Below the pieces are notes generated by a model. That model was given only the letters and a program-made list of their open reading frames with translations. It had not been told where the DNA came from and ran no database searches. 64,000 bases of DNA from Nannocystis pusilla (lineage in GTDB: Bacteria > Myxococcota_A > Polyangia > Nannocystales > Nannocystaceae): assembly GCF_049060185.1 (NCBI RefSeq), contig NZ_JBMEQO010000002.1; one strand, 5' to 3'. Positions 1,046 to 62,990 of the stretch are shown piece by piece (position 1 is the first letter of the stretch; each line of letters starts with the position of its first letter). The position numbers were made by a program, and so were the translations under genes.

Positions 1046-2129
1046 ATCCTCGTCTCCCGCATCGACCCGTCTCCAGGCGCAGGTCGGTCCTCTTGCTCCA
1101 TCCCCCGCGACATCGTCGGCCGCACCAGACCCATCGGCCCGGCGCGTGCGTGCTCTACCGCTGCATGCACCGCCGAGATTTTGCCCTCGGGCTCGTCGCC
1201 GCCGGCGCCTGGGCTTGCGGCGAGCGCCCCACCTCCGCGCCGCCCCTCCTCGCCGCGCGCTCGCGCCCGAGCCCGAGCCCGAGCTCCCCGCGCCCGGTCC
1301 GCCCCCGCCGCCGGTCGCAACTGCGGCCCTCGGCCCGCCCCTCATTACTCGCGCTGCCCTCGACGCCCGCGCCGACGAATTGCGCGAGCGCCACGCCGGC
1401 CGCGGCTTCACCGTCCTCGTCGAGCCGCCCTTCGTCGTCCTCGGCGACGAGTCGCCCGCCGACGTCCAGCGGCGGGCCGATCGCACGATTCACTGGTCGG
1501 TGCTGCGGCTCAAGCAGGACTACTTCGCCCGCGACCCGGCGCGCATCATCGACGTGTATCTGTTCGCCGACCGCGCCAGCTACGGCCGCAACACCCGCGA
1601 GTTGTTCGGCGAGGAGCCAGACACCCCCTATGGCTATTACTCGCCGCGGCACGCCGCCCTGATCATGAACATCGGCACCGGCGGCGGCACCCTCGTCCAC
1701 GAGATCGTCCATCCGTTCATGGCCGCCAACTTCCCCGCCTGCCCCGCCTGGTTCAACGAGGGCCTCGCCTCGCTCTACGAGCAGTGCGGCGAGCACGGCG
1801 GCCGGATCGTCGGCTACCCCAATTGGCGCCTGCCGCACCTGCAGGCCGCCATCCGGTCCCGACGCCTGCGCTCGTTCGCCGAGCTGTGCGCCACCGACTC
1901 CGACGAGTTCTACGGCGCGCGCTCCGGCCTCAATTACGCCCAGGCCCGCTACCTCTGCTATTATTTACAGGAGCAGGATCGCCTGCGCGACTACTATCAT
2001 GCCTTCGTCGCCGGCGCCGACCTCGATCCCGGCGGCTACGCCACCCTGCAGAAGCTCGTCGGCCACCGCGACATGCCCCGCTTCGAGCGCGAGTGGCGGC
2101 GCTTCGTCCTCGACCTGCAGTGGAGCTGA
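978..2129 (+). CDS. Secreted zinc metallopeptidase-like protein (HEIVH … NEGLASLYE, peptidase MA-like); lipoprotein signal in a different frame, so an apparent frameshift
   Basis: The ORF frame carries HExxH plus a downstream NEGLA-x-x-E, the third-ligand motif typical of MA-clan peptidases. A lipobox signal MHRRDFALGLVAAGAWAC starts at 1165 in the +1 frame relative to the catalytic domain. This implies an indel between 1165 and about 1330. Confidence 0.55.
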   Translation: MSLGTASRDIVRVDPCLSPRTGRSSSPASTRLQAQVGPLAPSPATSSAAPDPSARRVRALPLHAPPRFCPRARRRRRLGLRRAPHLRAAPPRRALAPEPEPELPAPGPPPPPVATAALGPPLITRAALDARADELRERHAGRGFTVLVEPPFVVLGDESPADVQRRADRTIHWSVLRLKQDYFARDPARIIDVYLFADRASYGRNTRELFGEEPDTPYGYYSPRHAALIMNIGTGGGTLVHEIVHPFMAANFPACPAWFNEGLASLYEQCGEHGGRIVGYPNWRLPHLQAAIRSRRLRSFAELCATDSDEFYGARSGLNYAQARYLCYYLQEQDRLRDYYHAFVAGADLDPGGYATLQKLVGHRDMPRFEREWRRFVLDLQWS

Positions 2130-2138
2130 GCCGGGCGG

Positions 2139-3257
2139 CTACAGCCCGGCCGCCGCCGCCACCGCCGCCGTCGTCGCCTTGATCACGTCGGTCGCGAACG
2201 CGCGGTCGAGCGTGTCCGGAGTGTCGAGCCCGACCGTGCAGTGATACGCCGGGTTGCGGAACACCCCGGTGTCGAACACGTGCAGCGCCGGCAGGCCGCG
2301 CTCCCAGGCTGCGGTGGTCCGACATGCTCAGCACCCCGAACGCGTCGTCGTCGAGCTTCTCCGCGTCCGTCAGCGTCATCACCCCCGTCAGCCGGCCGAG
2401 GCGCTCCGCCTGCGCCTCCAGCTCGAGCGCGAACGGCTCGGCGGACGCGTCGGCGACCACCGCGATGAAGTCGGCACGGCCCTTGTTCGCCGTCAGCTCG
2501 TCGGCCAGCCCGGGGAACCGCTCCGCCAGCGGCCCCGGGAAGATCTGCGAGTGCTCCGCCGCGCTCGCGTAGCCGATCATGTCGAAGTTGAACGCCACCG
2601 CCAGCTTCGCGCCCGTGAACGACTGCGCGAACGCCCGCGAGCCGCGCAGCCCCAGCTCTTCCTCGTCCCAGCAGGCCACCATCAGCGTGCGCGGCAGCCT
2701 CGCCTGCCCGAGCACGCGCGCCACCTCGAGCGCCCCGGCCACCCCGCTCGCGTTGTCGTCGGCGCCGGGGCAGCCGCTGACGTGATCGTAGTGGGCTGCC
2801 AGCAGCACCACCTCGGACACCGCCGCGGTGCCCTCGCGCGTCCCGATCACGTTGATCCCGGAGCCGTAGTCCTGGCGCTGCACCACGAAGCCCGCCTGCT
2901 CGAGCTCCGCCGCGCAGCGGTCCTGCACCTTCTGCCAGTGGATCGATCCGGGCGGCCGCGGCTGGGCCATGAACGCGACGTCCTCGGCCCAGCGAACCGG
3001 GTCGACGCAATCCATCAGCGCCTCCGGGCTGTCGTGGCCGCAGAGGGACGCGATCCCGACGTCGGGCCCCGGCCCCGTGGTCGTCGGCGCCGCCGTCGTC
3101 CCGCCCGAGCTGCTCGAGCTGCTGGTCCCGCCGGGCGCGCCCGTCTCCGCCGCACCGCTCGTCGTCGTCGCCGCGTCGCTCTCGCCGCTCGTCGCCGGCG
3201 ACGGCACGCACCGAGCCCGAGCCACAACACCCCGACCGCACCGCGGACCGCTCGCAT
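2139..3257 (-). CDS. M28-family zinc aminopeptidase lipoprotein; disrupted by about 2 frameshifts
   Basis: AHYDHVSGCPGADDNASGVAGALEVARVL and EEELGLRGSRAF are M28 hallmarks. The true C-terminus (…WERGLPALHVFDTGVFRNPAYHCTVGLDTPDTLDRAFATDVIKATTAAVAAAAGL*) is in another frame, ending at 2139. The lipobox signal MRAVRGAVGVLWLGLGAC (ATG at 3257) is also out of frame with the Thr/Ser-rich linker. Confidence 0.7.
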
Positions 3258-3292
3258 CGCCGTCACTATAGCACCGGCCCGACCCCTCGCCG

Positions 3293-3775
3293 GTGGATCG
3301 CCCGCCGCCGATCGCTTATGACCGGCGTCATGGCCCACCCCTCACCGAACTCACAGGCTCATGGACCGGCCCCGCGCGCACCTGGCTCGACCCGACTGGC
3401 GGCGAGCCGGACGTCGGCGACTGGCGCGTCCAGATCGAGTCGCTGCTCGACGGCCGCTACGCGCGCCTCCGCTACGACGGCGTGTGCACCGGCAAGCTGC
3501 ACCACGGCGAGATGACCCTCGGCGTCGACGACCACGAGCACACCCTGTACTGGATCGACACCTTCCACACCGGCGCCTCCCCTGTGGTCGATCGGGCCCG
3601 CGGGCCCGCCGTCTCGGTCCTCGGCAGCTACCGCGCCGGCGACCAGCGCTGGGGCTGGCGCACCGCCTTCCGCCGCGACGGCGACGAGCTCGTGATCGAG
3701 GCCACCAACATCGAGCCGAGCGGCGAGGAGACGCGCGCCATCGAGGTCCGCCTCGTCCGCGTCGCGGCTGCCTGA
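3293..3775 (+). CDS. Hypothetical protein (about 160 aa)
   Basis: Clean ORF with coding-like composition (…WRVQIESLLDGRYARLRYDGVCTGKLHHGEMTLGVDDHEHTLYWIDTFHTG…). I recognise no named domain. Confidence 0.45.
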   Translation: MDRPPPIAYDRRHGPPLTELTGSWTGPARTWLDPTGGEPDVGDWRVQIESLLDGRYARLRYDGVCTGKLHHGEMTLGVDDHEHTLYWIDTFHTGASPVVDRARGPAVSVLGSYRAGDQRWGWRTAFRRDGDELVIEATNIEPSGEETRAIEVRLVRVAAA

Positions 3776-3790
3776 TCGACCATGCTCCTC

Positions 3791-3845
3791 GGGACATGCC
3801 CGTTCGGCCATGCCCGCACGGACATGTCCCTCACGGACAGGCGAC
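3791..3845. repeat. GGACATGTCC-family repeat, 14-bp periodic (3 to 4 units)
   Basis: GGGACATGCCCGTTCGGC CATGCCCGCACGGA CATGTCCCTCACGGACAGG. It lies between the convergent gene ends 3775 and 3831. Confidence 0.7.
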
Positions 3846-4983
3846 TATCTGCACGTCGTAGCTGAACGGCTGCGGCACCCCGTTCACCGCCACCGTGTAG
3901 GTCTTGCCGGCCTCCGAGGTCCAGCCCTGCGGTGTCATGGCGATCGCGCTGGCCGAGCCGAACCCGCCCATGAGCGCCGTCGTCTTGACCGGCCGGTCGA
4001 CCCCGCCCTCGCTGATCGTCACCTGCGCCGCGCCGAGGTCGATCGCATCGCTCTGGATCGTCCAGCCCGTCTCGTCGACGTCGGACCACGGCACCTCGGG
4101 CACGTGGATCGCGTCGATCGGCACCACCCGGGCGGCGGCCAGGCCGTCCACGCCGCGTCGCCGCCGCCCTGCCCGCCGATCACCCACATGCACGAGTTGA
4201 CGGCCGTCGATCCGAGCCCGACCGGCCCGAGCCCGTTCGAGAGGATCCACCGCCGGTGGCCGAAGGTCGTCGCATTGCCGGGGTCGACCATGTAGAGGTC
4301 GACCGCGACCACGCCCGGCGTCGACGAGATGTTGCTGTTCTTCGCCGCCTGCGCCCGTCGGCGCTGTAGCAGTCCCACTGCATCGGCGGGTCGTGCGACA
4401 GCTGCCCGTTGGCGTGCATCATCAGCGCGCACTGCTGCGCCTTGGCATTGAGCCCCGCGTCGTGCCCGACCGCCGGCAGCCCGGCCAGCCAGCGGTACAG
4501 GTTGATCAGCCTGAGCGCGTTGTCGCGGCCCGGCGCGCCCGTGTCGCCCGCCTGACAGCCGGCGACCGCCCCGCTCCATGTCCCTTCGGACATGTCCGCA
4601 CGGTCCGCCGTCCAGCGCGCGCACCTCCGCCGCCGGATCGATCGGCTCGCCGGTGGTGGTGATGTCGCCGGTGGTGGTCGTCGAAGCCGCGCTGGACGTC
4701 CCGCTCCCGGTCGGACCTGGCCCCGAGGACACCTCGTCCGGGCCCGTGGTCGTCGTGCCCGCGACGCTCGTGCTCGTCGGCTCCCCGCGGTCGACGCCTC
4801 GCTGGTGCCCGGCGCGCTCGCATCGCTGGTCCCCGGTCCGGTGCTCGCCGCGCTCGCGCCGGTGCTCGTCGCCTCGCTCGCGGTCTCGGGCATACCGATG
4901 CTCTCGGTCACCTCCGCGACGCCCGAATAGCAGCCGACGACGAGCACGGACATTGATGCGAGGACGACGCGAGAGGGCAGCAT
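3831..4983 (-). CDS. CAP/SCP/PR-1 domain lipoprotein with Ser/Thr-rich linker; at least 3 frameshifts
   Basis: Lipobox signal MLPSRVVLASMSVLVVGC. CAP-domain motifs (…NALRLINLYRWLAGLPAV…, …TTFGHRRWILSNGLGP…) are spread over three overlapping ORF fragments (4180..4983, 4019..4732, 3831..4250). Confidence 0.6.
4576..4606. repeat. GGACATGTCC-family repeat (2 units) inside the linker region of the CAP lipoprotein gene
   Basis: CCATGTCCCTTCGGACATGTCCGCACGG. It lies between the Thr/Ser-rich linker and the CAP domain and coincides with a frame change. Confidence 0.6.
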
Positions 4984-5218: not shown

Positions 5219-7545
5219 TCAGCCCGGCGGCGCGGCCTTGCGGCTCTCGGCCACGATCCGCACCAGGTCGGCCTCGTCCTCGCACAGCGCCACGATCAGG
5301 TCGCCCGGCACCAGAGTCTCGTCCGGCCGCGGGTTGACGATCAGCCGCCGCCGCAGCTCCGCGTGCGACGTCCCGCCCGCCGGCGCCTTGCCGCCCGGAT
5401 CGGCCGTGCGATACAGCCCCAGCGGCACCGCGCCGCCGCGGCCTTGCACCTCGAGCAGCGCGCGTCGGGCCTTGCGCCACGACTGTCCGATGAGCCAGGT
5501 CGGCGCCGGCGCCGTGTAGACCTCGGCGTTGTCGTCGGCGAACGCCACCAAGCGGTTGAACAGCTCCGCGAACGCGCGATCGCGGCACGCCATCACCAGC
5601 CAGCGGTGCGCCAGCGCCTGGCAGTCGACCGGCACCAGCCAGGCCGCGAACGGCGAGAACACCTCCTCGCGCTCCGCCTCCGACGTCTCGACCAGAGTCA
5701 CCGGCAGCGCCGGCGCAGTGCGGGCGATCTCCACCGACGTCGCCGCCACCCCGAGCGTCCGCGCCCGCTGCCCCCGCCGATCGGGTCGCGCGCGCACGCC
5801 TGGTGCACTGCGCGGGCGATCCGCAGCGGATCGTAGCTCGCCCCCGATCCATCGCCGTCGCCGAGCACGATCACCCGGGCGGCCCGCGGCAGCCGCAGCC
5901 CCGCCAGGTCCTCCGGCACCTCCGGGTTCGAGTGGTGGATCGTCAGCGCCTTGACCCGCGCCAGCTGCAGCCGCACCGCCGCGGCAGCGCGTCGGACACC
6001 ACCACGTGCAGCGGCCGGTGTCGCGTCGGCCCCGGGCTGCGCAGCAGGCGGATCAGCGGCAGCATGTCCTCGCGGAAGTTCAGCACCACCAGGTGCCGGT
6101 TGAGCCGCCGCCACAGCCGCGTCTGCTCCTGCGCGAAGATGTTGGTCAGCGTCGCGGTGAACCACGCCAGAAGGCCGAGCCCGAGGATCGTCGCCGCCGC
6201 CCCGACCAGCCGCGCCGTCGGCGTCTTCAGCGTCTCGGTCGTGAAGTTGCCGGTGGCGAACGTGTTCATCTCCCAGAACGAGTCATTCAGCGTCCTGAGC
6301 CTGGCGTTCGAGTCATGTTCCAAGGACCAGACGATGAACGTCGACAGCGTCACCACGCACGCGAACGCCGCGAACGGCACCAGCGGGTTCGAAGCTGGCT
6401 CTCGATCCCCGCGCCCGGGACTCGCCGCCGCCGCAGCGCCCGGCGCACCAGGTACAGCACCACCCCCAGCGCCGCCGCGAACGCCCGCCCTGCAGCCACG
6501 CCTGCCGGCGCTCGCTGGTCTCGTGCAGCTCGGCCACCGGGTGCAGCGGGATCGGCTCGCGCTCGGCGAACCCGCGCCACTCCACGCGGACCTTGAGGCT
6601 CGCGTACTGCTTGTCGCGCGCCAGCTTCTTGAGCCCCTGGACCATCGCCTCGACCGCCAGCCGGCGGTCGGCCAGAAGGCCTCGTCTTCCACCCGCTCGC
6701 GCGGCGTCGCCACCAGCACCACCGAGCTCACGCACACCGTCGGCATGCTGTACTCGAGGCCCGGATAGGTCCCGGTCTCGATCGGGCAGATCCGGTAATA
6801 CGGGTAGCCGTCGATCAGGCGGTTCAGCACCGCCTCGGGCAGCGGGTTCAGGGTCGCCAGGCCGGACGCCAGCACGTCGCGGATCTCCGTGTGCCCGGGC
6901 TCGGTGGTCCGCAGCATCGTCAGCAGCTCGCGCCGGCTCATCGCCGCCAGCGCCTCGTCGGCAGTGCCCGTGAACAGCGGCAGCTGCTCCGCGGTGTGAC
7001 CGGCCGCGCCGAGGATCACCTTGGCCGTCTCGTAGCTGCCCGAGCCGTCCTTGCCCATGAACAGCGGCTCGCGGCCGATCTCGGCGAAGTCGTCGAGGCG
7101 CACCGGCCGGCGCACCAGCACGTGGACCGCCGCGTCGGACACCGCCGCGATCACCCGCAGCTCGGCCTTGTCGGCCTCCTCGGGCGACAGCTTGCACATC
7201 CACCCGCCCTTCGGGATCGCGCTGTCGCCCGCGTCCGCGTCGGCCTGCCCGGCCTTGAACGCCTCCGCCGCCACGTCGTACTGCACCAGCGCCGCGTCGA
7301 GCTCGCCCGACAGCAGCTTGTGCACGTTCTCGCACGAGCCCTTGGTCGACTCCGGCGCGATCGTCACCGCCCCTCGCCCTGGACCGCCTCGGCCAGCGCG
7401 TGCGCGGTCACGTCGAACCCGCCCTTCTTGGCCCCCGAGCCGAAGCGGACCACGATCGCCTCGCCCGCCCGCGCCGCACCTGTCTGCAGGAACATGCCCA
7501 AAGCACAGGCGCGATCGACCATGTCCTCGAGAACATGCCCTTACG
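5219..7545 (-). CDS. TAXI-family solute-binding domain fused to an ion-channel pore and RCK_N/RCK_C cytoplasmic domains (putative ligand-gated channel); several frameshifts
   Basis: TAXI motifs (…FGSGAKKGGFDVTAHALAEAV…, TIAPESTKGSCENVHKLLSGELDAALVQYDVAAEAF, …GYPYYRICPIETGTYPGL…). TM/pore segment (…PFAAFACVVTLSTFIVWSLEH…FATGNFTTETLKTP…LGLGLLAWFTATL…). RCK_N-like (HLVVLNFREDMLPLIRLL…HVVVSD, …RVIVLGDGDGSG…). RCK_C (…LIVNPRPDETLVPGDLIVALCEDEADLVRI…, ORF 5219..5797). The pieces lie in different frames. The N-terminus is not resolved. Confidence 0.5.
7477..7545. repeat. GGACATGTCC-family repeat cluster (about 4 units)
   Basis: CACCTGTCTGCAGGAACATGCCCAAAGCACAGG…CCATGTCCTCGAGAACATGCCC. It overlaps the putative 5' end of the TAXI-channel gene. 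Confidence 0.65.
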
Positions 7546-8763: not shown

Positions 8764-9554
8764 CTGCGCTCCACCGAGATCCTCGCGCTGGCGCTCATCG
8801 CGCTGGTCTCCTTCGGCCTCAGCTACATCGGCGCCACCGTCGGGCTCGTGCTCGGTCAGCTGCGGGTGGCCCTCCTCGTCTACGCCCTCGGCAGCCCCGT
8901 CGCCGGGGCCGCCACCAGCCTCGCCATCTCCACCGCCGGCACCCTCACCGGCACCTGGCGCCACGCCCGCGACGGCCGCGTCAGCCTGTGGCTGCTGGCC
9001 AGCGTCGGCGCCCCCTCGGCCGTCGCCGCCTTCGCCACCGCGCGCTGGGCCGGCAGCGTCGACGCCCGCCTCCTCAAGGCCGCCATCGCCGGCGTCCTCC
9101 TGCTCACCGGCGCCGCCATGCTGCGCCGCCGGCCCGAGCCCACCGGTCCTTCCGAACATGTCCCTTCGCGCACCTTCGCCGTCCTCGCCGAGGTCGTCGT
9201 CGGCGCCGTCCTCGGCGCGATCTCGAGCCTCGTCGGCCTCCTCCTCGGCAGCCTGCGCCTGCCGGCCATGATCCGCTACGCCCGCGTCCCCCGCCCGTGG
9301 CCGTCGGCACCAACATGGCGATCGGCGCAGTCACCGGGCTGTCGGCCGGCGTCGCCACCTTCCTCGAGGGACAGGTCGACCTCACCGCCTTCGCGGTCGT
9401 CACCCCGCTCACCCTGCTCGGCGCCAACCTCGGCGCCCGCCGCACCGGCGACCTCGACCCCGACAGCCTGCGCCGCTGGATCGCCTGGATCCTGCTCCTG
9501 TCCGCCGCCCTGATGCTCGGCGAACTCGGCCTCGAGCTGCGCCGCACCGCCTGA
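8764..9554 (+). CDS. TauE/SafE (DUF81) family membrane exporter; 1 frameshift near 9295
   Basis: 4+4 TM halves with Gly-rich TauE motifs (…LVSFGLSYIGATVGLVLGQ…; …MAIGAVTGLSAGVATFL…LLGANLGARRTG…). Stop at 9554. Start uncertain. Confidence 0.65.
9148..9175. repeat. Single GAACATGTCC unit in the central loop codons of TauE
   Basis: CCTTCCGAACATGTCCCTTCGCGCACC encodes …GPSEHVPSRT… in the inter-half loop. Confidence 0.55.
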
Positions 9555-9723
9555 CCGGCGGCTCTCGTCGCCGGGCCTGCGCGACGACTCGGCCGCGAGC
9601 TCCACCGGCTCACCCAATCAGCCGCTCGCAGCGCCTGGCCCCACGCGACGATTCGGCCGCGGGCTCCACTCCCGGCTGGACCGGCCGCTTTCGTCGCGCG
9701 GCCCCGCGCGCTACCTTTCGCTC

Positions 9724-11615
9724 GTGTCCGAGCGCGACCGCTTCCTCGCCTTCGCCGCCCGGGCCGTGCCCGTCGCGTTCGGCGCCCGGCCGGCGCCCGG
9801 CGAGCTCGCCGCCCACTGGCGGGCCGCGACCCAGGCGATCGGCGCCCGCCTCGTCCTCGCCTGCGCGCGCGAGCGCCTCGTCGAATTCGACCTTCAGGAC
9901 ATGTCCCTTCGCACATGTTCCTTGAGCCTCCCGCTGCGACGGCGCCGGGCCTTCGAGCTGCACGCCGCCGACCTCGACTGCGCCGACCTCCCCGACCTCC
10001 CCGACCTGCTCCCACGCCTCCTGCCCGCGCTCGCCCCCGCCGCCCGCGCCCGGATCGCGCGCGAGCTCGCCGACAGCCGCTGGAACCTCGCCCTCGCCCG
10101 CCTCGCCGCCGACCTGCGCCATCGGACATGCTCTGAAGGCCAGCCTTGGCCTGCCCCGCTCGACCCCGAGAACCTGGTCGTCGACGGTCACCCGTGGCAC
10201 CCGATGAGCAAGACCCGGCTCGGCCTGCGCGCCTGGGAGAACCTGCGCCACGGCCCCGACCTCCTGGCCCAGGCAGCGGTCCACGCCGTCGACGTCGCCG
10301 CCGAACACGCCCAGCTGGCCGAGCCGGCCCTCTACGCCGACCTCGCGCGCGCCCTGTTCCCGGCCCCGCCGCCTGGCCTGGTCCGCCTGCCCGTCCACGC
10401 CCTTCAGCTACGCCGCCTCCCGCGCCTGCTCGGCCCGCTGTGGGGCCGCGAGGTCCGCCCCGCCGGCCTGCCCCCGCTCCACGCGCGGGCCCTGCTCAGC
10501 CTGCGCACCGTCGCCCTCGCCGCGCCCGCGCTGCACCTCAAGCTCGCCGTCGACATCCACACCACCAGCGCGCGGCGCCAGGTCTCGCCCGCCTCGGTCC
10601 ACAACGGCCCGGCGATCGCCGCCCTCCTGGCCGCGATCCAGGCCGCCGATCCGCAGACCCGCCGCGGCCTGCAGATCCAGCCCGACCTCGCCGCCGCCGG
10701 CCTGCACCTCGCCACGGCCCCGCCGCCGGCCAGCTCGGCGTCGTCCTTCGCCCCGATCCGCTCCCCTCGCCCGACAGCTCCACGCCGACCTCGCCGCACC
10801 CGCCGACCCGTCCCGCGCGACGTCGACCGCCCCGGACTCGCCCGCCGGCACACCTGCCTCTTCCGACCTGTCCTCCGAGACATTACCCTCACGACATGCC
10901 CCCTGGGACCTGTCCCGCGCGACATATTCATTCAATCATGTCCGATCGCGCACCCCGCAGCTCGTCGTCTGCGCCGCCCTCGGCGAGCGCCGGCCCGGCG
11001 GCGACCTCCTGTTGCGCGAGCTCGCCGCCGACTACCCCGGCGATCCGCGCGCGCGTCTCGCGGCCTTCTTCCACGACTACCTCGACCTCCTCGTCCCCGC
11101 GGCCCTGCGCCTGCTCACCGCCCACGGCGTCGCCCTCGAGGCGCACCTGCAAAACACCCTCCTCGTCCACGCCGGGCGCCCTGCGGCTTCGTCGTCCGCG
11201 ACCTCGGCGGAGTGCGGCTCCACCGCGGGCGGCTGGCCGCGGCCGGCCATGCCCCCGCGCTCGCCCCCGACTCCTTCACCTTGACCTCCGACCTCGCCGA
11301 GGCTCAGGGCAAGCTGCTGCACACCCTCGTGCACGCCCACCTCGCGGCTGTGATCGGTTGGGTCGACGACGCCGGCGGCCCCGACCCCGACGTCCTGTGG
11401 CCCGCGGTGCGACGGATCTGCCAGCGCGAGTGGGATCGCTGGGCCGCCGATCCGGCGCTCGCGCGCGCGTGCGCCGACGATCGCGCGTTCTTCTTCGCGG
11501 CCACCTGTCGCAGCAAGGCGCTGCTGCGCATGCGCATCGACGAACGCGTCAGCGATTACGCCTATACCGAGGTCGCCAACGCGCTCGCCGAGGGGTACTC
11601 TTCCCCGCCGCATGA
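9724..11615 (+). CDS. IucA/IucC-family NIS siderophore synthetase with C-terminal FhuF-like domain; frameshifted
   Basis: …[17 protein letters not shown]…, …[29 protein letters not shown]…, …[16 protein letters not shown]…[11 protein letters not shown]… lie in three frames. The stop overlaps the downstream ATG (ATGA). Repeat units sit inside it at 9891..9925, 10124..10135 and 10866..10945. Confidence 0.7.
9891..9925. repeat. GGACATGTCC-family repeat (2 units) inside the IucA/IucC N-terminal codons
   Basis: CCTTCAGGACATGTCCCTTCGCACATGTTCC encodes …[11 protein letters not shown]…. Confidence 0.55.
10866..10945. repeat. GGACATGTCC-family repeat cluster (about 5 units) in the middle of the IucA/IucC gene
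   Basis: GACCTGTCCTCCGAGACATTACCCTCACGACATGCCCCCTGGGACCTGTCCCGCGCGACATATTCATTCAATCATGTCCGATCGCG. It coincides with a reading-frame switch. Confidence 0.65.
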
Positions 11616-12540: not shown

Positions 12541-12578
12541 AGGACATGTCCTTTAGACCCTGTCCCCGGAGACATTGA
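12541..12578. repeat. GGACATGTCC-family repeat immediately upstream of the nadE ATG
   Basis: AGGACATGTCCTTTAGACCCTGTCCCCGGAGACATTGA-ATG. It contains a GGAG that could serve as SD. Confidence 0.7.
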
Positions 12579-15458: not shown

Positions 15459-15502
15459 CGGCTGCCCCGACCCGTTGTGAATCACTCCGCGGAGAGCCGC
15501 CG

Positions 15503-49210: not shown

Positions 49211-49392
49211 CCGCCGGCGCGTGAGGCAAATCCGCCGCCGCCCCGGCCCCGGCGCGCCCGCAGGTTGACGCCCGGCGCGATCGCGGGCACCTTCCCCGTC
49301 CCTGCGGCGCCTCGCTCTTCGCTGATTCCAACGTGAAGGAAGCCGCGCACGCAGTTCCTCATACGGCCCTTCGGGCCTGAGTTCCGAGCCAA

Positions 49393-52508: not shown

Positions 52509-54373
<1,865 letters not shown>

Positions 54374-54693: not shown

Positions 54694-54844
54694 CCCGCTG
54701 GCGCTGCGCCCCGCCCGCGAGCGCCTGGCCTCGCCGCTTGTGGCTCCTCGCGTGCCTCGCCGTGCGCCTTCGTCCCTGCCGTTGTATTGTCCATCGCAGA
54801 TGCTCGCTTCGCTCCCGTTCGCGCCGCGCCGTCGCTCGCAAGGC

Positions 54845-56149
54845 ATGGGTCGAAGCCTGGTGGTCCTCCTCGTCCTGCTCGCGGCCTGCCGACGCAGCGC
54901 CGAGACCACTGCTCCTGCCAGCGTCGACGCCCCTCAGGACAAGCCGACGAGCGAGCTGCGGCGGACCTACGACCTCCCGGCCGCCGACGCTCCCTGGACC
55001 GCGCAGGATTATCAAAGAGCCCGCGACGCCTTCGTCCGCCTCGAGCGCGAGCGCCCCGAGCTGCTGCCGCGGCTCGACGGACCAGACGCCGAATGGCTCC
55101 GGCGCCTCGTCGCCCTCGACGGCATCGAAGCCGCCGTCCGGAGCACCGCCGGCCCCGACGAGCTCACCGCCCTGCACCTCGCCCTCGCCGACATCCTGCA
55201 GCTCTACGCCGCCCGGGCGCTCTCGCGCGGCGAATACGGGCACGAGTACCTCGCCGTCGCCGCCGCCTTTTTCAAAGAGTCCGCCCTGCGCGTCGACCGG
55301 CTCGCCGGCGACGACGCCTCTCGCCGCACCTTCGTCGAGGCCCGCTTTCACCTCGCGCGCGGCGTTCACGACGTCCTCGCCAGCGCCCTCTCCCTCCCGG
55401 ACACCATCGATCCCGCCGCCGCGGTCGCCACCCTCGGCCCGCTCCGCGACCTCGTCGCCCCGTGGTTCCTCCCCGAGGAACGCGACCGGATCCTCGACCT
55501 CGCCGATCGCCTCGCCGCCGTCGACGTCCCCGCCACCGAGCTCGCCGCGCTGCGCACCGCCTTCGCCCCCGATCGCGAGCCTCACCCGCGCGTCGACGCC
55601 CTCGCCGAAGAGCTCCGCGAGCACCTCGATCAGCAGGAGGCCGTGCTCGCCGCGGTCGCGGCCGGGGCGCTCCAGCCGGTCGAGGTCGGGCGCGAGGGCT
55701 CGCAGGTCCGCTGGGCCTTCCCCGACGTCGGCTTCTCTGCCGCCTTCCCCCGGCGGCCCAACGCGCAGCGCCAGAGCTTCACCACCGCCGACGGCGTGGC
55801 CATGACCACCCGCATGCTCGCGCTCAAGCAGCCCGGCGACGTCTCGCGGCTCGTCACCTGCAGCGCGCGCGCCAGGCCGATCGCCGGGCGCACGCCCGCC
55901 GACGAGCTGCGCGGCATCGCCGACACCATGCACCTCCAGGGCGTGCGTGCGATCGACGTCGACGGCACCGCCGGCCTCGAGGGCACGCTCACCACCGACA
56001 AGGCCCACGGCCTCGTCCGCGTCGTCACCGTCGCCGACGCCACCTGCGTGATCGTCGGCGAGGTCCCGCGAGCGCAGGCCCGCGAGCACGCCGACGAGCT
56101 GCGCCGCTTCGTCGATTCGTTCCGCCCGGGCTCCGCCAGCGGCCGCTGA
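54845..56149 (+). CDS. Hypothetical lipoprotein (alpha-helical N-domain, alpha/beta C-domain)
   Basis: Lipobox MGRSLVVLLVLLAAC. Intact 434-aa ORF. Confidence 0.55.
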   Translation: MGRSLVVLLVLLAACRRSAETTAPASVDAPQDKPTSELRRTYDLPAADAPWTAQDYQRARDAFVRLERERPELLPRLDGPDAEWLRRLVALDGIEAAVRSTAGPDELTALHLALADILQLYAARALSRGEYGHEYLAVAAAFFKESALRVDRLAGDDASRRTFVEARFHLARGVHDVLASALSLPDTIDPAAAVATLGPLRDLVAPWFLPEERDRILDLADRLAAVDVPATELAALRTAFAPDREPHPRVDALAEELREHLDQQEAVLAAVAAGALQPVEVGREGSQVRWAFPDVGFSAAFPRRPNAQRQSFTTADGVAMTTRMLALKQPGDVSRLVTCSARARPIAGRTPADELRGIADTMHLQGVRAIDVDGTAGLEGTLTTDKAHGLVRVVTVADATCVIVGEVPRAQAREHADELRRFVDSFRPGSASGR

Positions 56150-56386: not shown

Positions 56387-57040
56387 ATGCCCCGGCCACG
56401 CGAGTTCGATCGAGACGAGGCCATCGAGCGGGCCATGGCCGTGTTCTGGGAGCACGGCTACGACGGCACCTCGACCGATCAGCTCCTCCAGGCCATGGGC
56501 ATCGGCCGCCAGAGCATGTACGCCGCCTTCGGCGACAAGCACGGCCTCTACCTCGCCGCGCTGGAGCGCTACCAGGCGCGTCAGGGCGCCGACCTGCTGG
56601 AGCGGCTGCGGGCGGTGTCCTCCCCGCTGGGCGCGATCGAGGACATCCTGCTCGGCGTGGCCGGAGACACCGCCGAGGGGCGTTCGCGCGGCTGTTTCGG
56701 CATCCAGTCGATCATCGAGATGGCCGGGCGCGACCCCGAGGTCGTGACCCTGGCCCGCAGCGCCACTGCCCTGTGCGAGGCCGCCTTCGAGCGCATGGTC
56801 GCCGAGGCCAAACGCCGCGACGAGGTCGGCGCGCACGTCGACGAGCGCAGCGCCGGCCGCTTCCTCCTCTCCACCCTGCAGGGCCTGCGGGTCAGCGCTC
56901 GCACGGGCGCCACGCCCGAGGCCCTGCGGGCCGTCGCCGGCTTCGCCATCGCCGCCCTCCGGCCGCGCCGCCCGCCGCAAGTTCTTGACTCCATGGTCCA
57001 CAACCCTACCGCTCGCGGCAGCCAGCGACGCACCGCGTGA
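56387..57040 (+). CDS. TetR/AcrR-family transcriptional regulator
   Basis: HTH motif …FWEHGYDGTSTDQLLQAMGIGRQSMYAAFGDKHGLY…. Confidence 0.8.
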   Translation: MPRPREFDRDEAIERAMAVFWEHGYDGTSTDQLLQAMGIGRQSMYAAFGDKHGLYLAALERYQARQGADLLERLRAVSSPLGAIEDILLGVAGDTAEGRSRGCFGIQSIIEMAGRDPEVVTLARSATALCEAAFERMVAEAKRRDEVGAHVDERSAGRFLLSTLQGLRVSARTGATPEALRAVAGFAIAALRPRRPPQVLDSMVHNPTARGSQRRTA

Positions 57041-57200
57041 GCGGCCCGTCGTCGACTGCATCGTCTAAAAACTCACCGCTCGCGACAGCCCGCGACGGAC
57101 CGCATGCGCGGCGTCGTCGACTGCATCCTCCACAACCCACCGTTCGTGACAGTCGACGCCCACCGCCTCGGGCGGCCGTCGTCGACAGGAGTGATTCGTC

Positions 57201-58286
57201 ATGTCTCTCGATCAGTACTACCTGCTCGGCCGCTCCGGCCTGCGCGTCAGCCCCTTCGCGCTCGGCACCTTGACCTTCGGCACCGACGGCCCGTACGGCG
57301 CCTGGGGCTCGAGCAAGCAGGCCGCGCGCGCCGTGTTCGACCGCTACCTCGCGGCCGGCGGCAACTTCATCGACACCGCCGATCTGTACACCCGCGGCAC
57401 CAGCGAGTCGCTGCTCGGCGAGTTCATCGCCGACGGCAACCGCGATCGCCTCGTGCTCACCAGCAAGTACAGCTACAACCTCGCCGAGCGCGACCCCAAC
57501 GCCGGCGGCAACGGGCGCAAGAACATGATCCGCGCGCTCGAGGCCTCGCTGAAGCGCCTGCGGACCGACTACCTCGATCTCTACCTGCTTCACACCTGGG
57601 ACCGGATCACCCCCGCCGAGGAGGTCGTGCGCGCCTTCGACGACCTCGTGCGCGCCGGCAAGATCCGCTACGCCGGCCTGTCCGACGTCCCCGCCTGGTA
57701 CGCCGCGCGGGCCCACACCTACGCCGAGGCCCACGCCCTCGCGCCGATCGTCAACCTGCAGCTGCAGTACTCGCTGGTCGAGCGCGGCATCGAGGCCGAG
57801 TTCACCTCGCTCGCCACCAACCTCGGCATGGGCATCACCGCCTGGAGTCCGCTCGCCAGCGGCCTCCTGTCGGGCAAGTACCGGCCCAACAGCGACGGCG
57901 GCAGCGGCCGGCTCAGCACCGGCACCGGCAAGTCGCTCAGCCTCTTCACCGAGCGCAACTGGCAGATCGTCGGCGCGCTCGAGGCCGTCGCCGCCGAGCT
58001 CGGGCGCAGCATGGCCCAGGTCGCGCTGCAGTGGGTGCTCACGCGTCCGGGCGTCACCTCGGTGATCCTCGGCGCCACGCGGCCCGAGCAGCTCGAGGAC
58101 AACCTCGGCGCGCTCGACCTCCGGATCCCGCCCGAGCTGCTGCGCCGCCTCGACGAGGCCAGCACGCCGCCCCTCACCACCCCGTACGCGATGTTCGGCG
58201 ACCGCTACCAGGCCGCAGTGCACGGCGCCGCAGTCAGCGATCGCCCGCCCGCCTTTGCCCCGCCGGTCCGCGTCAGCCTCGGCTGA
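57201..58286 (+). CDS. Aldo/keto reductase (AKR family oxidoreductase)
   Basis: Intact. AGGAG SD 8 nt upstream. …GTLTFGTD…, …NFIDTADLYTRGTSE…, …IRYAGLSDVPAW…. Confidence 0.85.
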   Translation: MSLDQYYLLGRSGLRVSPFALGTLTFGTDGPYGAWGSSKQAARAVFDRYLAAGGNFIDTADLYTRGTSESLLGEFIADGNRDRLVLTSKYSYNLAERDPNAGGNGRKNMIRALEASLKRLRTDYLDLYLLHTWDRITPAEEVVRAFDDLVRAGKIRYAGLSDVPAWYAARAHTYAEAHALAPIVNLQLQYSLVERGIEAEFTSLATNLGMGITAWSPLASGLLSGKYRPNSDGGSGRLSTGTGKSLSLFTERNWQIVGALEAVAAELGRSMAQVALQWVLTRPGVTSVILGATRPEQLEDNLGALDLRIPPELLRRLDEASTPPLTTPYAMFGDRYQAAVHGAAVSDRPPAFAPPVRVSLG

Positions 58287-58484
58287 AATCATTCGTGTCG
58301 GTCGAGGTGGGCCGTCGCCGCGGAACGTCGATTGCCGCGGCGCACGGGCGTCGCCCGCGACCCGGCGAGTCGCCCCGACCACCACGAACCATCACGAACC
58401 GCATCGGTTCGAGGCCTCGCCGATCGCTGCGCGGAATCGTCGCGCCCCGCACCGACGTGGTACCTCTCGTCGCCATGGGATTCT

Positions 58485-58974
58485 TCGACAAGGCCAAGCA
58501 GTTCCTCGGCGGCAAGAACATGGCGAGCGTCGCCATCACGGTCATCGAGCGTCAACCGGCGGAGACCGCCACCTTCCCGGTCACCGACTCGGTCCTCAAG
58601 GGCACCATGGTGATCACCGCGCAGCAGGAGTGCACCTTGCTGGCGACCAAGTACGAGGTGTGGCTGTACATCAAGAAGGACGACATCGACTCCCGAACCT
58701 CGCCCGCGCCGAGAAGGATCCCGATCCGAACGTCAGCTACTCGGACAGCTGCCTCAAGATGCCTTGCGACCTCAAGCCCGGGCAGGTCATCACCCAGCCG
58801 TGGATGGTGAGCGAGGTCGACCTCGCCGGCATCCTCGCGCGCAACGGCTTCTCCGACCCGAACGCCGCCACGCGTGATCCGCGGGTGCGGCTCGTCGTCA
58901 AATGCATCGCCGACGTCAAGGGCTCGCCGTTCGATCCGAGCGCAGAGGTCACCGTCCGCCTCGCGCCGACCTGA
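58485..58974 (+). CDS. Spo0M-like (SpoOM/arrestin-fold) protein; 1 frameshift
   Basis: MGFFDKAKQFLGGKNMASVAITVIERQP…VTDSVLKGTMVITAQQECTL…. Confidence 0.5.
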
Positions 58975-59042
58975 ATCGCGCGCGCCGGGACATGGGCCCC
59001 GCGCGCCCCTGCGCGCCGGCCCGTGGCACATTCGCCGGCACG

Positions 59043-59653
59043 ATGAACATCGACCTCGCCGATGCTTGTCCGTCGCCGCCCTCATGAGCCAGGGCGTCGC
59101 CACAGCCGGCTGCACGATCAACCTCGGCGGTCTCTCCGATACCAACATCGGCCCCGAGTCGACCACGACCACGAGCACCGCCGGCACCACGGACGACACG
59201 ACCAGCACCGGCACGGCGGGCGAGACGACCGACGCCACCGAGACCGACCCCGGCACCAGCGTGCCGACGACCACCGAGGCCCCGACCAGCACCACCGAGG
59301 CCACCGCGGGCACCACCGAGGCCACCGCGGGCACCACCGGCGACGCCTTCGTCTGCAGCGACGGCACCGCGCTCGCGGACCCCGCCTGGGTCTGCGACGA
59401 GAACCCCGACTGTCCCGACGGCTCCGACGAGGTCAGCGGCTGCGGCCTCGAGGCCTTCACCTGCACCGACAAGAAGGAGATCCCCGCGACCTGGGCCTGC
59501 GACGAGGTCCCCGACTGCCTCGACAACTCCGACGAGGTCAGCGGCTGCGGCCTCGAGGCCTTCGTCTGCACCAACGGCACCGAGATCCCGGCGACCTGGA
59601 AGTGCGACATGGCCGAGGACTGCCCCGACGGCTCCGACGAGGCCGACTGCTGA
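59043..59653 (+). CDS. Secreted/lipoprotein with Thr-rich linker and 3 LDL-receptor class A (LDLa) Cys-rich repeats
   Basis: The pattern C..G…W.CD…DC.DGSDE..C occurs three times (…FVCSDGTALADPAWVCDENPDCPDGSDEVSGC… and two further copies). Lipobox …ATAGC. Start uncertain (59043 or 59084). Confidence 0.55.
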
Positions 59654-59663: not shown

Positions 59664-59752
59664 GGGACATGTCCTAAAGGGCGTGTCATGTCCCACGCGC
59701 GGCCGCTCCCGACGACCTGAAAGTCCACATGACCTCTCGGTCATGTCCCTTC
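59664..59752. repeat. GGACATGTCC-family repeat cluster (about 5 units) between convergent genes
   Basis: GGGACATGTCCTAAAGGGCGTGTCATGTCCCACGCG…GTCCACATGACCTCTCGGTCATGTCCCTTCAGG. Confidence 0.8.
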
Positions 59753-61035
59753 AGGCACACGCCAGCCGCCGACGAGCCGCCGCACTTCCGCCACGTCGGA
59801 GAACGGCCGCGTCTGGCCGCGCGCCGTCTGGCCCTCCTCGTGGCCCTTGCCGGCGATCACCACCACGTCGCCGGCCCCGGCCGCCGCGATCGCGTCCGCG
59901 ATCGCCTGCCCGCGGTCGAGCACGATCGACCAGCCCGCGCGGCCGCCCTGCAGCCCTTCCACCACCGCGGCCGCGATCGCCTCCGGCGCCTCGTCGCGCG
60001 GGTTGTCGCTCGTCACCAGCGCCACGTCGGCCAGCGCGCCGACTGCCGCGCCCATCGGCGCGCGCTTCTCCGGCGTCGAGTTGCCGCCGGCGCCGAACAC
60101 CACGAGCACCCGCCCCTGCGGCCCGCGAGCCGCCGCGCCGTCGCGCACGTATGCGTCAGCGCGTCGGGCGAGTGCGCATAGTCGACCGCGATCGTCGGCC
60201 GGCCGGGCCCGTGGGCCAGCACTTCGAAGCGCCCCGGCACGATCGGGCACTCGGCGATCCCACACGCCACCGCCTCGCCGGGCAGCCCGGCCGCGAGCCC
60301 CGCGAGCGCGGCCGCCAGCGCGTTCTCGGCGAACACCTCGCCCACCATTTTTGTGGAGAGCGCCCCGCCGAGCGCCGTTGCGGCCGGCGACGGGCGCAGC
60401 ACCACTCGCGTCCCGGTCGCCTCGACCTCGATCGTCTCGGCCTCGAGGTCCGCCGCGCGCAGCCGCGGTCCGCGACCCGGCGCCGCGAACCACCGCCGCT
60501 CCACGTCGGCGGGGATCGCCTGGTCGACGAACAGCGCGTGCTTGTCGGCCGCGTTGAGCACCGCCACACGCCCGGGCCCCAGGTGCATGAAAAGCTGGGC
60601 CTTGGCCGCCAGGTAGTGCTCCCAGTTGCCGTGCGTGCCGAAGTGATCGACCGACAGGTTGGTAAACACCCCGAGGTCGAACCGCCAGCTGCGCGCGTAG
60701 CCCTGCGCCAGCGCGTGGCTGGTCGTCTCGATCACCGCGTGCCTGGCCCCGCGCTCGTGCGCCCGCGCCAGAGTGGCGACAAAGTCGGTGAACCGCTTAC
60801 CGCGCGGCCACGCCTCGTCGTCGAACGCGACCCCGAGCGTCGACACCCGCAGCGCCGACAACCCGGCCGCCCGCACCGCCGCCGCCAGCATCCACGTCGT
60901 CGAAGTCTTGCCGTTGGTGCCGGTGACCCCGAACGAGAACATCGACTCCGCCCACGGAGCCGCCGCCGCCACCGGCCGCGAGACGCTCGTCACCCGGCGA
61001 GCATAACCCGGACCATGGGCACTGGTCTCGCGCAC
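59741..61035 (-). CDS. Mur ligase-family protein (central ATP-binding plus C-terminal domains; short N-terminus); 1 frameshift
   Basis: …FGVTGTNGKTSTTWML…, …DHFGTHGNWEHYLAAKAQLF…, C-terminal …VLVVFGAGGN…DVVVIAGKGHEEGQT…. Confidence 0.65.
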
Positions 61036-61364: not shown

Positions 61365-61460
61365 AGAGGACATGTAGATTCAAACATGACCTTTCGCGCA
61401 CGTCCTTTCGCACATGCCCCATCGGACATGCCCACTCGAACATGCTCAATCAGACAGACC
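61365..61460. repeat. GGACATGTCC-family repeat cluster (about 6 units) downstream of trpF
   Basis: GAGGACATGTAGATTCAAACATGACCTTTCGCGCACGTCCTTTCGCACATGCCCCATCGGACATGCCCACTCGAACATGCTC. Confidence 0.75.
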
Positions 61461-62075
61461 GCGACAGGCCGCCAGCAGCGCCACGATCGCCGCGCGGTCC
61501 TTCTCCCGCGGCGCGCTCCCGGCAACTCCGTCCCGCTGGCGACGTCGAGCCCGGCCGGGCGGACCTGCGCGATCGCCTGCGCCGCGTTGGCCGGCGTGAT
61601 CCCGCCGGCCAGCCACACCTCGAGCCCCGCGAGCTGCTGCACCGCCGCCGCGGCCCATGCCCAGTCGGTCGTCTGGCCTGCCCCGCCGTAACCGGGCACC
61701 GCCGCGTCGAGCAGCGCGCGGGCCGGCCGGGGTTAGGCGGCAGCAGCTCGGCCAGGGCAGGCGTGCCGCGGACCACCCAAAGGTACGGCAGCCCGTAGCC
61801 CGTCACCTCTTCGGCGCCGACGATCTGCACGAGGTCGAGCGCCAGCGTCTCGGCCGCGCGGCGGACCTCGTCGGCCGACGGCTCGACGAACACCCCCACG
61901 CGCTCGAGCGAGCGCGGCGGGTCGACCGCGCGCAGCAGCGCCTCTGCCTCGGTCAACGACAGCCCGCGGCGCGACCCGCTCCACAGGTTGATCCCGACCG
62001 CGTCGACCCCCAGCTCGACGCAGGCCGCCAGGTCCTCGGGGCGGGTCACCCGCACACCTTGAGCTTCACCGCCAT
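61446..62075 (-). CDS. trpF: N-(5'-phosphoribosyl)anthranilate isomerase; about 2 frameshifts
   Basis: MAVKLKVCGVTRPEDLAACVELGVDAVGINLW…, …PGYGGAGQTTDWAWA…, …GGITPANAAQAI…VASGTE…KDRAAIVALL…. Confidence 0.75.
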
Positions 62076-62084
62076 GCGCGCACC

Positions 62085-62122
62085 GACCTGTCCTTCTCGC
62101 CCTGTTCGGAGAAACATGTCCT
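62085..62122. repeat. GGACA/TGTCC units in the trpC–trpF intergenic spacer
   Basis: GACCTGTCCTTCTCGCCCTGTTCGGAGAAACATGTCCTG. Confidence 0.6.
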
Positions 62123-62184
62123 GAAAGCCAGGCCCCACGCGACCTCGCTCGCGCGCTCGCCTCGCCCCCGCGCACCGGCCAGCC

Positions 62185-62990
62185 TCACAGCGCCATCACC
62201 AGGTCGCGCAGCGCCTCGCCCGGCTGGTCGGCGGTCATGAAGTAGCTGCCGATCAGCAGCGCGTCGGCCCCCGAGTCGCGCAGGCGGAGCGCGTCGTCGA
62301 TGGTGCGGACCCCGCTCTCGGCCACATACGTAAAACTCTTGGGCACGTACTTGCGCAGCTTGGCCGCGCGGTCGGGGTCGAGCTCGAACGTCTGCAGGTC
62401 GCGCGAGTTGACCCCGATCAGCTTCGCCCCGGCTGCCATGGCGCGATCGATCTCCGCCTCGTCGCGGGTCTCGCACAGCACCTGCATCTCGAGCGTGTGG
62501 GAGAACTCGATCAAGTTGCGCAGCTGCGGCGCCGGCAGGGCGGCGACGATCAGCAGCACGCAGTCGGCCCCGACCCGCTTGGCCTCGACGATCTGGGTCT
62601 TCTCGAGGATGAAGTCCTTGGCCAGGAGCGGCAGCGCCACGCTCTGGCGCACCGTCCGCAGGTCTTCGAGCGAGCCCTGGAAGTGCCGGTCGCACAGCAC
62701 GCTCATGCAGGTCGCGCCGCCGGCCGCGTAGAGCATCGCGATCTGGCGCGCGTCGGCGCCTTCGCGCAGGACGCCGGCGCTGGGCGACGCGCGCTTGAAC
62801 TCGGCGATGATCCCCGGGCGCGGGCCCTCGCGCAGCGCGCCGATGAAGTCGCGCGGGCGCGGCAGGCGGGCGCCGAGCTCGATCAGCTCGCGGTCGGTCA
62901 GCGCTCCCGAGCGGGTCGCCCGGGGGCGGCGAGCTCGGCCCGCTTGGCGGCCAGGATCTTGTCGAGGTACGTGCTGCCTTTGTCGCTCAT
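62185..62990 (-). CDS. trpC: Indole-3-glycerol phosphate synthase; 1 frameshift
   Basis: …IIAEFKRASPSAG…, …CMSVLCDRHFQGSLEDL…, …LIGVNSRDLQTF…. Confidence 0.8.

Follow-up and report, generated by a model that had tools for sequence, protein, structure and literature searches.

Frame-breaking deletions across a 64-kb stretch of a Nannocystis pusilla genome: very probable errors of a Nanopore-only assembly

Genes of the window and their frame breaks

The window, a 64,000-nucleotide stretch of a Nannocystis pusilla genome, contains approximately 54 genes, of which approximately 37 (~70%) are frame-broken; the preliminary description had put the number at 20 or more, which was correct but too low. 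Without correction, the ORFs of the window yielded no full-length homologous proteins; with the missing base put back, they aligned over their full length with Pfam models and with hundreds of distant homologues. Nucleotide alignment of 50 orthologous CDSs (46.7 kb) with relatives at 94–99% identity revealed, after curation, at least 66 frame-breaking deletions (one base in 63 cases, two bases in 3), or approximately 1.4 per kb of CDS. Pfam scans of ORF fragments placed consecutive parts of one model in adjacent frames of the same strand for nadE, IucA/IucC-FhuF, TauE, fatty-acid desaturase, gcvT, CCP, ECF sigma, the hybrid kinase, a SAM methyltransferase, tatD, rlmE, typA, a Mur-type ligase, trpF, trpC and trpD, and tblastn brought in two more broken genes, the M28 peptidase and a DUF1570-like gene at 1165. 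One to four single-base indels per gene had been proposed: the frame breaks stand, but all are deletions, some are of 2 nt, and a single gene has up to 6 sites.

The DUF1570/peptidase-MA-like gene (1165–2126, plus strand; 318 aa in N. radixulma; Pfam match) is split: in tblastn with the protein of L087, another Nannocystis assembly, residues 1–27 matched frame 1 (1165–1245) and residues 58–318 matched frame 3 (1344–2126), and at least one frameshift therefore lies within 1245–1344. The M28 peptidase (2142–3231, minus) has one frameshift near 2260–2306, with L087 protein M28_372 matching frame –2 (3231–2260) and then frame –3 (2306–2142) and with Pfam Peptidase_M28 covering only model positions 1–108 of 193 in the first ORF. 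CDS alignment of the CAP-domain lipoprotein (3834–4983, minus) to L083 (N. pusilla Na p29T) showed three one-base deletions (4129, 4356 and 4784), in agreement with the earlier estimate of at least three, and the L087 protein CAP356 matched in three frames. For the NMT1_3/TAXI-type solute-binding protein (5222–7495, minus; 761–775 aa in relatives), also expected to have at least three, alignment showed six (5773, 5977, 6392, 6486, 6675 and 7367), and tblastn gave six pieces in alternating frames. A deletion at 9291 breaks the TauE/SafE exporter (8764–9554, plus; Pfam in two frames, L083 alignment and tblastn), and four deletions (10707, 10757, 11179 and 11603; L083 alignment) break the IucA/IucC-FhuF siderophore synthetase (9724–11615, plus), with Pfam FhuF model positions 2–43 in one frame and 42–156 in another. 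Next to it, prs (ribose-phosphate diphosphokinase, 315 aa; 11612–12556, plus) carries deletions at 12327, 12453 and 12517 in a five-genome alignment, and nadE (glutamine-dependent NAD synthetase, 659–660 aa; 12579–14556, plus; Pfam in three frames) carries deletions at 13316 and 13965 that are specific to the window versus four genomes. The fatty-acid desaturase (16219–17137, minus) lies in a strain-specific stretch outside the coverage of the close references, and its frameshift or frameshifts (at least one, near 16775–16826) were located by Pfam only, with FA_desaturase model positions 2–80 in one frame and 94–234 in another. CDS alignment placed a deletion at 17907, affecting only the last codons, in an ArsR-type HTH regulator (17901–18236, minus) and, together with tblastn, two (19526 and 19548) in a hypothetical protein (360 aa; 18501–19582, minus). 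In gcvT (19713–20833, plus), a G3 run is reduced to G2 at 20481 (L083 alignment), and the Pfam models GCV_T and GCV_T_C match in different frames.

Further downstream, alignment to L086 showed deletions at 24388, 24712 and 26802 in a di-haem cytochrome c peroxidase (CCP, 855 aa; 24318–26882, plus; CCP_MauG model positions 2–39 and 46–148 in different frames) and at 28212, 28554, 28728, 28883, 29063 (2 nt) and 29372 in an ECF sigma factor with a long C-terminal extension (511 aa; 28140–29665, plus; Sigma70_r2 and Sigma70_r4_2 in different Pfam frames). CDS alignment identified deletions at 27107, 27222, 27551 and 27910 in a hypothetical protein between them (364 aa; 27059–28143, plus); at 30224, 30247, 30669, 31281 and 31461 in three small hypothetical genes (30108–31518), the third of which (31079–31518) is also missing stretches of 18 nt and 53 nt that RBIL2 has; at 36196 (C5) and 36632 (C7) in a hypothetical protein of 481 aa (35198–36647, plus); and at 37978 (2 nt) in one and at 39035 and 39116 in the other of two hypothetical genes (37789–39269, minus). 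The hybrid histidine kinase (1019 aa; 39779–42833, plus) has deletions at 39883 and 42306 in the L086 and L082 alignments, and its second HATPase_c domain is in another Pfam frame. Alignment also showed a 2-nt deletion at 44657 in an OmpA-domain protein (44409–45504, plus), a C5-to-C4 change at 48078 in the SAM methyltransferase (47750–48411, plus; Pfam in two frames), deletions at 48571 (C4) and 49209 (C5) in tatD (48414–49224, plus; TatD_DNase model positions 1–40 and 43–253 in different frames) and a C5-to-C4 change at 50458 in rlmE (FtsJ; 50160–50779, plus; FtsJ model positions 1–76 and 90–180 in different frames). In typA/bipA (52509–54373, plus), tblastn, alignment and direct reading of the sequence placed the break at 53523 (AAG to AG), and after correction the protein shares 99% identity with the intact 621-aa TypA of Nannocystis. 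A TetR regulator (56961), a 166-aa hypothetical protein (58693) and an LDL-receptor-A repeat protein (59061) within 56387–59653 (plus; alignment and Pfam) have one deletion each, as does a Mur-ligase-family enzyme (417 aa; 59741–60993, minus; alignment) at 60124 (G4 on the coding strand), with Mur_ligase_C model positions 1–39 and 31–127 in different frames. Within 61448–64000 (minus), split Pfam frames and alignment revealed deletions in trpF (61505, 61732 and 62051, with 61459 doubtful), trpC (62926, C6 to C5) and trpD (63193, and 2 nt at 63822). Core essential genes are thus affected, as had been claimed for typA, rlmE and trpF/C/D, and prs, nadE and gcvT are added to them.

Other genes have no frame-breaking gaps and a full-length Pfam match in a single frame: pcm (14757–15458, plus), which served as an intact control, gcvH (20903–21299), kynU (about 22282–23451), MGMT (23453–23773), rplC (49393–50064), a lipoprotein (54800–56149) and, between broken neighbours, AKR (57201–58286). 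The earlier listing of kynU, AKR, pcm and the lipoprotein as intact was therefore sound, but that of a 3-kb TldD/PmbA gene was not. Alignment showed that TldD (543 aa) and PmbA (449 aa) are joined as a 991-aa ORF (31637–34612, minus) by deletions at 32995 (G5 to G4) and 32968. In all relatives these are two genes with a 4-nt overlap, and homologues span just 54% of the 991-aa ORF, which is an artefact produced by the two deletions. A deposited 991-aa N. pusilla protein (P0394) is 100% identical to window positions 34612–31640, and the artefactual fusion thus already has a RefSeq-style accession, WP_421059619.1.

Direction, sequence context and relatives

The 66 deletions compare with three apparent one-base insertions relative to relatives, each of which was traced to a base missing from the reference L083 or to alignment at a gene end. 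In-frame indels (multiples of three) numbered 10 and included both gains and losses, the pattern that natural variation would produce.

The rate of deletion per run was 0.08% for runs of length 1, 0.10% for 2, 0.73% for 3, 3.5% for 4, 13% for 5, 29% for 6 and 50% for 7. The proposed link to high-GC homopolymers thus holds in that the rate climbs with run length, but G/C runs of at least three bases contain just 31 of the 63 one-base deletions. Another 23 of the 63 removed a lone base, in most cases a single G or C with runs of the other base on either side (CCCGCCC becoming CCCCCC, for instance), and the typA break (AA to A) also lies outside G/C homopolymers. Natural slippage mutations likewise prefer homopolymers, and context dependence alone therefore does not decide the cause.

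A comparison with close references, which the preliminary description had suggested, showed all orthologues to be intact in PacBio or draft assemblies of relatives, among them ILAH1 and RBIL2 (both PacBio) and N. radixulma. In the five-genome alignment of prs–nadE, four deletions (including 12327 and 12453) were found only in the window and three only in L083, whereas 12517 (C6 to C5) was common to exactly two assemblies, the window and L083, both derived from Oxford Nanopore (ONT) data; the other three genomes had none of these deletions. L083 was sequenced with ONT R9.4.1 (PMC10435759). Between L087 and L088, two other Nannocystis assemblies of similar divergence, approximately 13 kb of CDS contained no uncompensated frameshift, and ILAH1 and RBIL2 (L081 and L082) showed zero gaps across 21.9 kb.

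Origin of the assembly and rival readings

P0394 is located on a 12,694,743-bp N. pusilla contig, and the same figure is given as the N50 of Nannocystis sp. MIELM, for which 14,925 CDSs in 12.73 Mb were reported (PMC12766979, Table 1); its sister isolate UBH4 has 11,265 CDSs in 12.21 Mb (PMC12766979). The exact match of 12,694,743 bp, the species label and ANI point to the window being part of the MIELM assembly, deposited as N. pusilla. MIELM was sequenced with ONT R10.4.1 and processed with Guppy, Flye and medaka, without short-read polishing (PMC12766979).

We consider it very probable (approximately 0.96) that the frame breaks are deletion errors of a Nanopore-only assembly and not gene decay. 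This assessment takes the sequencing method from the literature, and the deletions, their direction and context, the intact orthologues and the lack of a decay signature from our comparisons; provenance, direction, context, missing decay signal and intact relatives all agree with the earlier preference for long-read-only indel error over pseudogenisation. The consensus would lose single bases, mainly within G/C homopolymers of 3–7 bases and at lone G or C positions flanked by runs of the other base; given that each lost base shifts the frame, gene calls would be split, truncated or wrongly fused. The strain's own DNA would contain the missing bases, and the real genes of the organism are almost certainly intact. 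Counting against this reading, deletions affect 13% of 5-mers, a high rate for R10.4.1 with medaka that calls for some additional cause, perhaps low coverage or a fast basecalling model, and 23 of the 63 deletions lie outside homopolymers.

There is a slight chance that a minority of the lesions are real and strain-specific, such as the 53- and 18-nt deletions at 31079–31518 and part of the lone-base losses that fall outside runs, or, at the extreme, that MIELM is a mutator with real homopolymer deletions. Real and very recent pseudogenisation throughout, for instance in a mismatch-repair-deficient lineage losing bases in homopolymers, is less likely still. Natural slippage indels also increase with homopolymer length, so the pattern is compatible in kind, and the 53- and 18-nt deletions are atypical of consensus errors. 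However, 1,408 substitutions had introduced not one stop codon into the 14,812 restored codons, and pN/pS was 0.24 in frame or upstream of breaks and 0.26 downstream, where 52% of the codons lie; selection is not relaxed past the breaks, although these pN/pS values are compatible with very recent events. Decay would also have to account for approximately 66 deletions with zero credible insertions, for damage to approximately 70% of genes in a culturable strain, with essential genes (prs, nadE, typA, trpC, trpD, trpF, gcvT and rlmE) not spared. It would further have to explain why only one other assembly, also ONT-only, shows deletions of this class, one of them at an identical site, and the genome itself is known to rest on unpolished ONT data. 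The host is a cultivated, free-living bacterium with a genome of 12.7 Mb and 72% GC.

In some endosymbionts, transcriptional slippage makes up for frameshifts, and many of the sites here are homopolymers, but it is highly implausible that the frameshifts are real and tolerated through such slippage or programmed ribosomal frameshifting. The frame is uninterrupted at every site in relatives (95–99% identity), and no site is therefore a conserved recoding signal; slippage needs long A/T tracts, whereas these sites are lone bases or G/C tracts of only 3–7 nt, with as many as six sites in one gene. Just as implausible is that the window is right and the relatives' assemblies contain insertion errors: L083 does have errors of its own, but four or five independent assemblies of different technologies agree against the window, and it is the restored sequence that matches Pfam models and distant homologues in full.

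Given that the frame breaks are in all probability assembly errors, annotation from this genome is unreliable until polished. The expected relevance to downstream annotation was borne out, with approximately 70% of the window genes mis-annotated in a public genome. The CDS count of the assembly is inflated (14,925 versus approximately 11,000 expected), at 1.4 deletions per kb of CDS the whole genome would be expected to contain over 10,000 such errors, and inclusion of the strain would distort pan-genome, orthologue and biosynthetic-gene-cluster comparisons. Biologically there is nothing new here; the practical relevance for annotation is real.

Comparison with known systems

The high share of disrupted frames in the window resembles mass pseudogenisation in Mycobacterium leprae and recent endosymbionts. 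Unlike such reductive genomes, however, the window lacks nonsense mutations and relaxed selection and has hardly any large deletions, its essential genes are equally affected, and its host is a free-living cultured organism with 12.7 Mb of DNA. The Na p29T assembly (L083, GCA_026626665.1) has one-base deletions of the same kind, with prs split into 225 and 119 aa, NMT1 split and nadE truncated, but it has fewer errors per kb in the same region (four versus five in prs–nadE) and most of its other genes are intact. Under-calling of homopolymers in ONT consensus sequences resembles the window in its long-read-only origin, near-exclusive deletion bias, rate rising with run length, fragmented genes and inflated CDS count. 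The window differs from usual ONT errors in a rate unusually high for the stated R10.4.1/medaka chemistry, and from pure homopolymer shortening in that a third of its errors drop a lone G or C between runs.

Reading-frame breaks in the window and in related genomes

The GC content of the window is 70–75% throughout, and no tRNA genes were found in it. Plain ORF lists, GC3 frame plots, and stop-to-stop ORF filters were too noisy or uninformative at 72% GC. A codon-usage Viterbi model with an explicit frameshift state suggested approximately 35 frame switches within one strand, most of them the kind that a one-base deletion would produce; this model mistook gene boundaries for shifts, as at gcvH (21299), assigned some genes to the wrong strand, and was used only to pick fragments. 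Pfam scanning of 90 stop-free ORF fragments revealed many genes in which successive parts of a single family model fall in adjacent frames: NAD_synthase (model positions 6–110 and 116–216), TatD_DNase (1–40 and 43–253), FtsJ (1–76 and 90–180), FhuF (2–43 and 42–156), CCP_MauG (2–39 and 46–148), Mur_ligase_C (1–39 and 31–127), PRAI (6–82 and 120–181), and FA_desaturase (2–80 and 94–234). GCV_T and GCV_T_C, as well as Sigma70_r2 and Sigma70_r4_2, lie in separate frames. TauE, TrpD, and an SAM methyltransferase are also split, as is the hybrid kinase, whose second HATPase_c lies in another frame. The frameshifts are therefore real features of the sequence as deposited.

The typA gene contains a single frame switch (53519–53525), at which the window reads GAG GGC AGT GGG, whereas every TypA has GAG GGC AAG TGG; one A is therefore missing. 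A protein search with the corrected sequence identified an intact TypA of 621 aa in Nannocystis sp. ILAH1, at 99% identity. Comparison of the TypA N-terminus with representative genomes (GTDB) had yielded 65% identity for the closest of the matches listed, with no Nannocystis among them; given the 99%-identical Nannocystis protein, this apparent lack of a close relative was a search artefact. Window 41985–64000 is syntenic with contigs of ILAH1 and RBIL2 (L081 and L082) at 95–97% nucleotide identity. Further references, from RBIL2 (L086), ILAH1 (L085), N. pusilla Na p29T (L083), a Logan contig (L084), N. radixulma (L087), and an N. pusilla draft (L088), covered most of the remainder (3.7–15.5, 17.4–21.8, and 23.2–42.5 kb), and 1.2–3.8 kb was covered at the protein level only. 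For the loci of N. radixulma and the N. pusilla draft, which are more distant (85–91% identity), blastn gap placement was noisy, and these loci were used via tblastn and multiple alignment only.

Alignment of 50 reference CDSs, with clusters of compensating gaps excluded, showed 66 frame-breaking deletions in the window (63 of one base and three of two bases) over 46.7 kb of CDS, and all genes of the ILAH1 and RBIL2 contigs are intact over the region syntenic with 41985–64000. Three one-base insertions were apparent, one being a deletion in the Na p29T locus itself (at 6036) and two being alignment effects at gene ends. The other gaps were 10 in-frame indels of 3–18 nt, in both directions, together with a deletion of 53 nt and two insertions, of 16 nt and 2 nt. 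Approximately 37 of approximately 54 genes are broken, so that the unusual density of frameshifts noted in the preliminary description, for at least 20 genes, is larger than was claimed. The breaks are spread over the entire window but unevenly, at 1 to 18 per 8 kb. With N. radixulma proteins as tblastn queries, we found one shift in the gene at 1165–2126, a shift at 2260–2306 in the M28 peptidase, three in the CAP protein, and five to six in the TAXI/NMT1 protein, at least three having been proposed for each of the latter two.

The clusters set aside, as noise of the alignment or natural divergence, were in nadE (12677/12682, 13404/13409, and 13480/13493), the IucA linker (10788–10930), the ECF sigma linker (29163–29319), and hyp481 (35470–35477). 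Those in nadE and the ECF sigma linker are short stretches with compensating +1/–1 or +5/–5 gaps, and the nadE clusters, which are also present between two non-Nanopore genomes, therefore reflect naturally diverged sequence or artefacts of alignment rather than assembly errors. A small hypothetical gene at 31079–31518 (minus strand), whose RBIL2 counterpart encodes 170 aa, is missing stretches of 18 nt and 53 nt that are present in RBIL2 and carries two one-base deletions in addition; the two larger gaps are atypical of consensus errors and may represent real variation or decay.

The tldD-pmbA junction and variable gene content

The 3-kb TldD/PmbA gene (31637–34612, minus strand), previously described as intact, did not prove to be so. 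All relatives have two separate genes, for TldD (543 aa) and PmbA (449 aa), with a 4-nt overlap. One window deletion, at 32995 (G5 to G4), lies 14 nt ahead of the tldD stop, and another, at 32968, lies in pmbA codon 6; together they carry the frame over the junction and give the deposited 991-aa fusion. This protein, "TldD/PmbA family protein [Nannocystis pusilla]" (P0394), was found in the cluster of a TldD homologue and matches window 34612–31640 at 100% over all 991 residues. It is present in public protein databases as MFY0532385.1 / WP_421059619.1 and is grouped there with genuine proteins of 543 aa and 449 aa.

Downstream of pmbA, the gene sets of ILAH1 (L085 13484–21632) and RBIL2 (L086 13097–21632) differ: ILAH1 has SIR2, PAD, and a Mu-type transposase, whereas RBIL2 and the window have ECF sigma, CCP, MGMT, and kynU. 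This difference points to an insertion or rearrangement in ILAH1. Gene content also varies among strains at 15500–17400 and 9554–9724. The former holds a fatty-acid desaturase and an unknown gene in the window, an EGF/FG-GAP protein in Na p29T, and an SPM-domain gene in both the N. pusilla draft and N. radixulma. In the tauE-iucA interval, Na p29T and the N. pusilla draft have three additional genes, AAA_16 plus two hypotheticals, that are absent from the window and N. radixulma. A 201-aa protein at 59043–59653 (plus strand), conserved in ILAH1 and RBIL2, contains three repeats of the LDL-receptor class A type (Pfam Ldl_recept_a, E = 3e-25), an unusual domain for a bacterium.

Natural divergence, gene decay, and assembly error

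The frame breaks of the window exceed natural divergence. The N. radixulma and N. pusilla draft loci, which show a comparable divergence (94–98% identity), have no uncompensated frame-breaking gaps between them over approximately 13 kb of CDS, and the ILAH1 and RBIL2 contigs L081 and L082 have no gaps over 21.9 kb. In a five-genome alignment of prs-nadE, the window alone carries four one-base deletions and Na p29T alone carries three deletions, with C6 to C5 at 12517 common to these two only; the other three genomes are free of frame-breaking gaps, the sole natural indel being one of 3 nt at a gene end.

Under real decay, insertions and nonsense codons would be expected, along with a relaxation of selection. 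The reference-restored frames contain no stop codons in 14,812 codons, pN/pS is flat (0.24 in the in-frame part of the window and 0.26 in the out-of-frame part), with 52% of codons lying downstream of an uncompensated deletion, and the one-base insertions are otherwise explained. Core genes are affected, as had been pointed out for typA, rlmE, and the trp genes: prs, nadE, typA, trpC, trpD, trpF, gcvT, and rlmE are all broken. Decay on this scale would be incompatible with a cultivable 12.7-Mb myxobacterium. Two other explanations, programmed frameshifting and faulty reference sequences, were also considered and rejected.

Indel errors of a long-read-only assembly, the explanation favored in the preliminary description, are supported by the deletion-only bias, the dependence on run length, the absence of stops, and the unchanged pN/pS, and we consider them almost certainly (probability of about 0.96) to be the source of the frameshifts. 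The deletion rate per run was 0.08% and 0.10% for runs of one and two bases, 0.73% for three, 3.5% for four, 13% for five, 29% for six, and 50% for seven. Runs of at least three bases hold 33 of the 63 one-base deletions, and 31 of these 33 runs are G/C; the suggested location in G/C homopolymers thus applies to about half of the deletions (31/63), but not to the 23 that removed a lone base. The lone-base rate climbs with the length of the run formed by the merged flanks, from 0.03% when the flanks differ to approximately 1% when they merge to five or six identical bases, as in CCCGCCC to CCCCCC. The broader rule for deletion sites is a G/C-rich, low-complexity context.

Sequencing technology of the assemblies compared

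The frameshifts are of no biological novelty; their consequence is a badly fragmented annotation, with artefactual proteins already in public databases. The assembly of Nannocystis sp. MIELM, to which the window is attributed, comprises 12,731,429 bp in three contigs with an N50 of 12,694,743 (PMC12766979, Table 1), and its ANI to N. pusilla is 94.9% (PMC12766979). All isolates of that study were processed with ONT R10.4.1, Guppy, Flye, and medaka, without short-read polishing (PMC12766979). For R10.4.1 this error rate is high, and low depth or the use of a fast basecalling model may be the cause. MIELM was assigned 14,925 CDSs, compared with 11,265 in 12.21 Mb for its sister isolate UBH4 (PMC12766979). 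Na p29T was sequenced on an ONT Flongle R9.4.1, whereas ILAH1, RBIL2, and the novel species were sequenced with PacBio Sequel and assembled with HGAP (PMC10435759). The deletions are therefore confined to the two Nanopore assemblies. The Na p29T type-strain assembly (GCA_026626665.1, ONT R9.4.1) likewise contains deletion errors, at L083 10001–12945, with prs split into 225 and 119 aa, NMT1 split into 518 and 260 aa, and nadE called as 594 aa rather than 660 aa.
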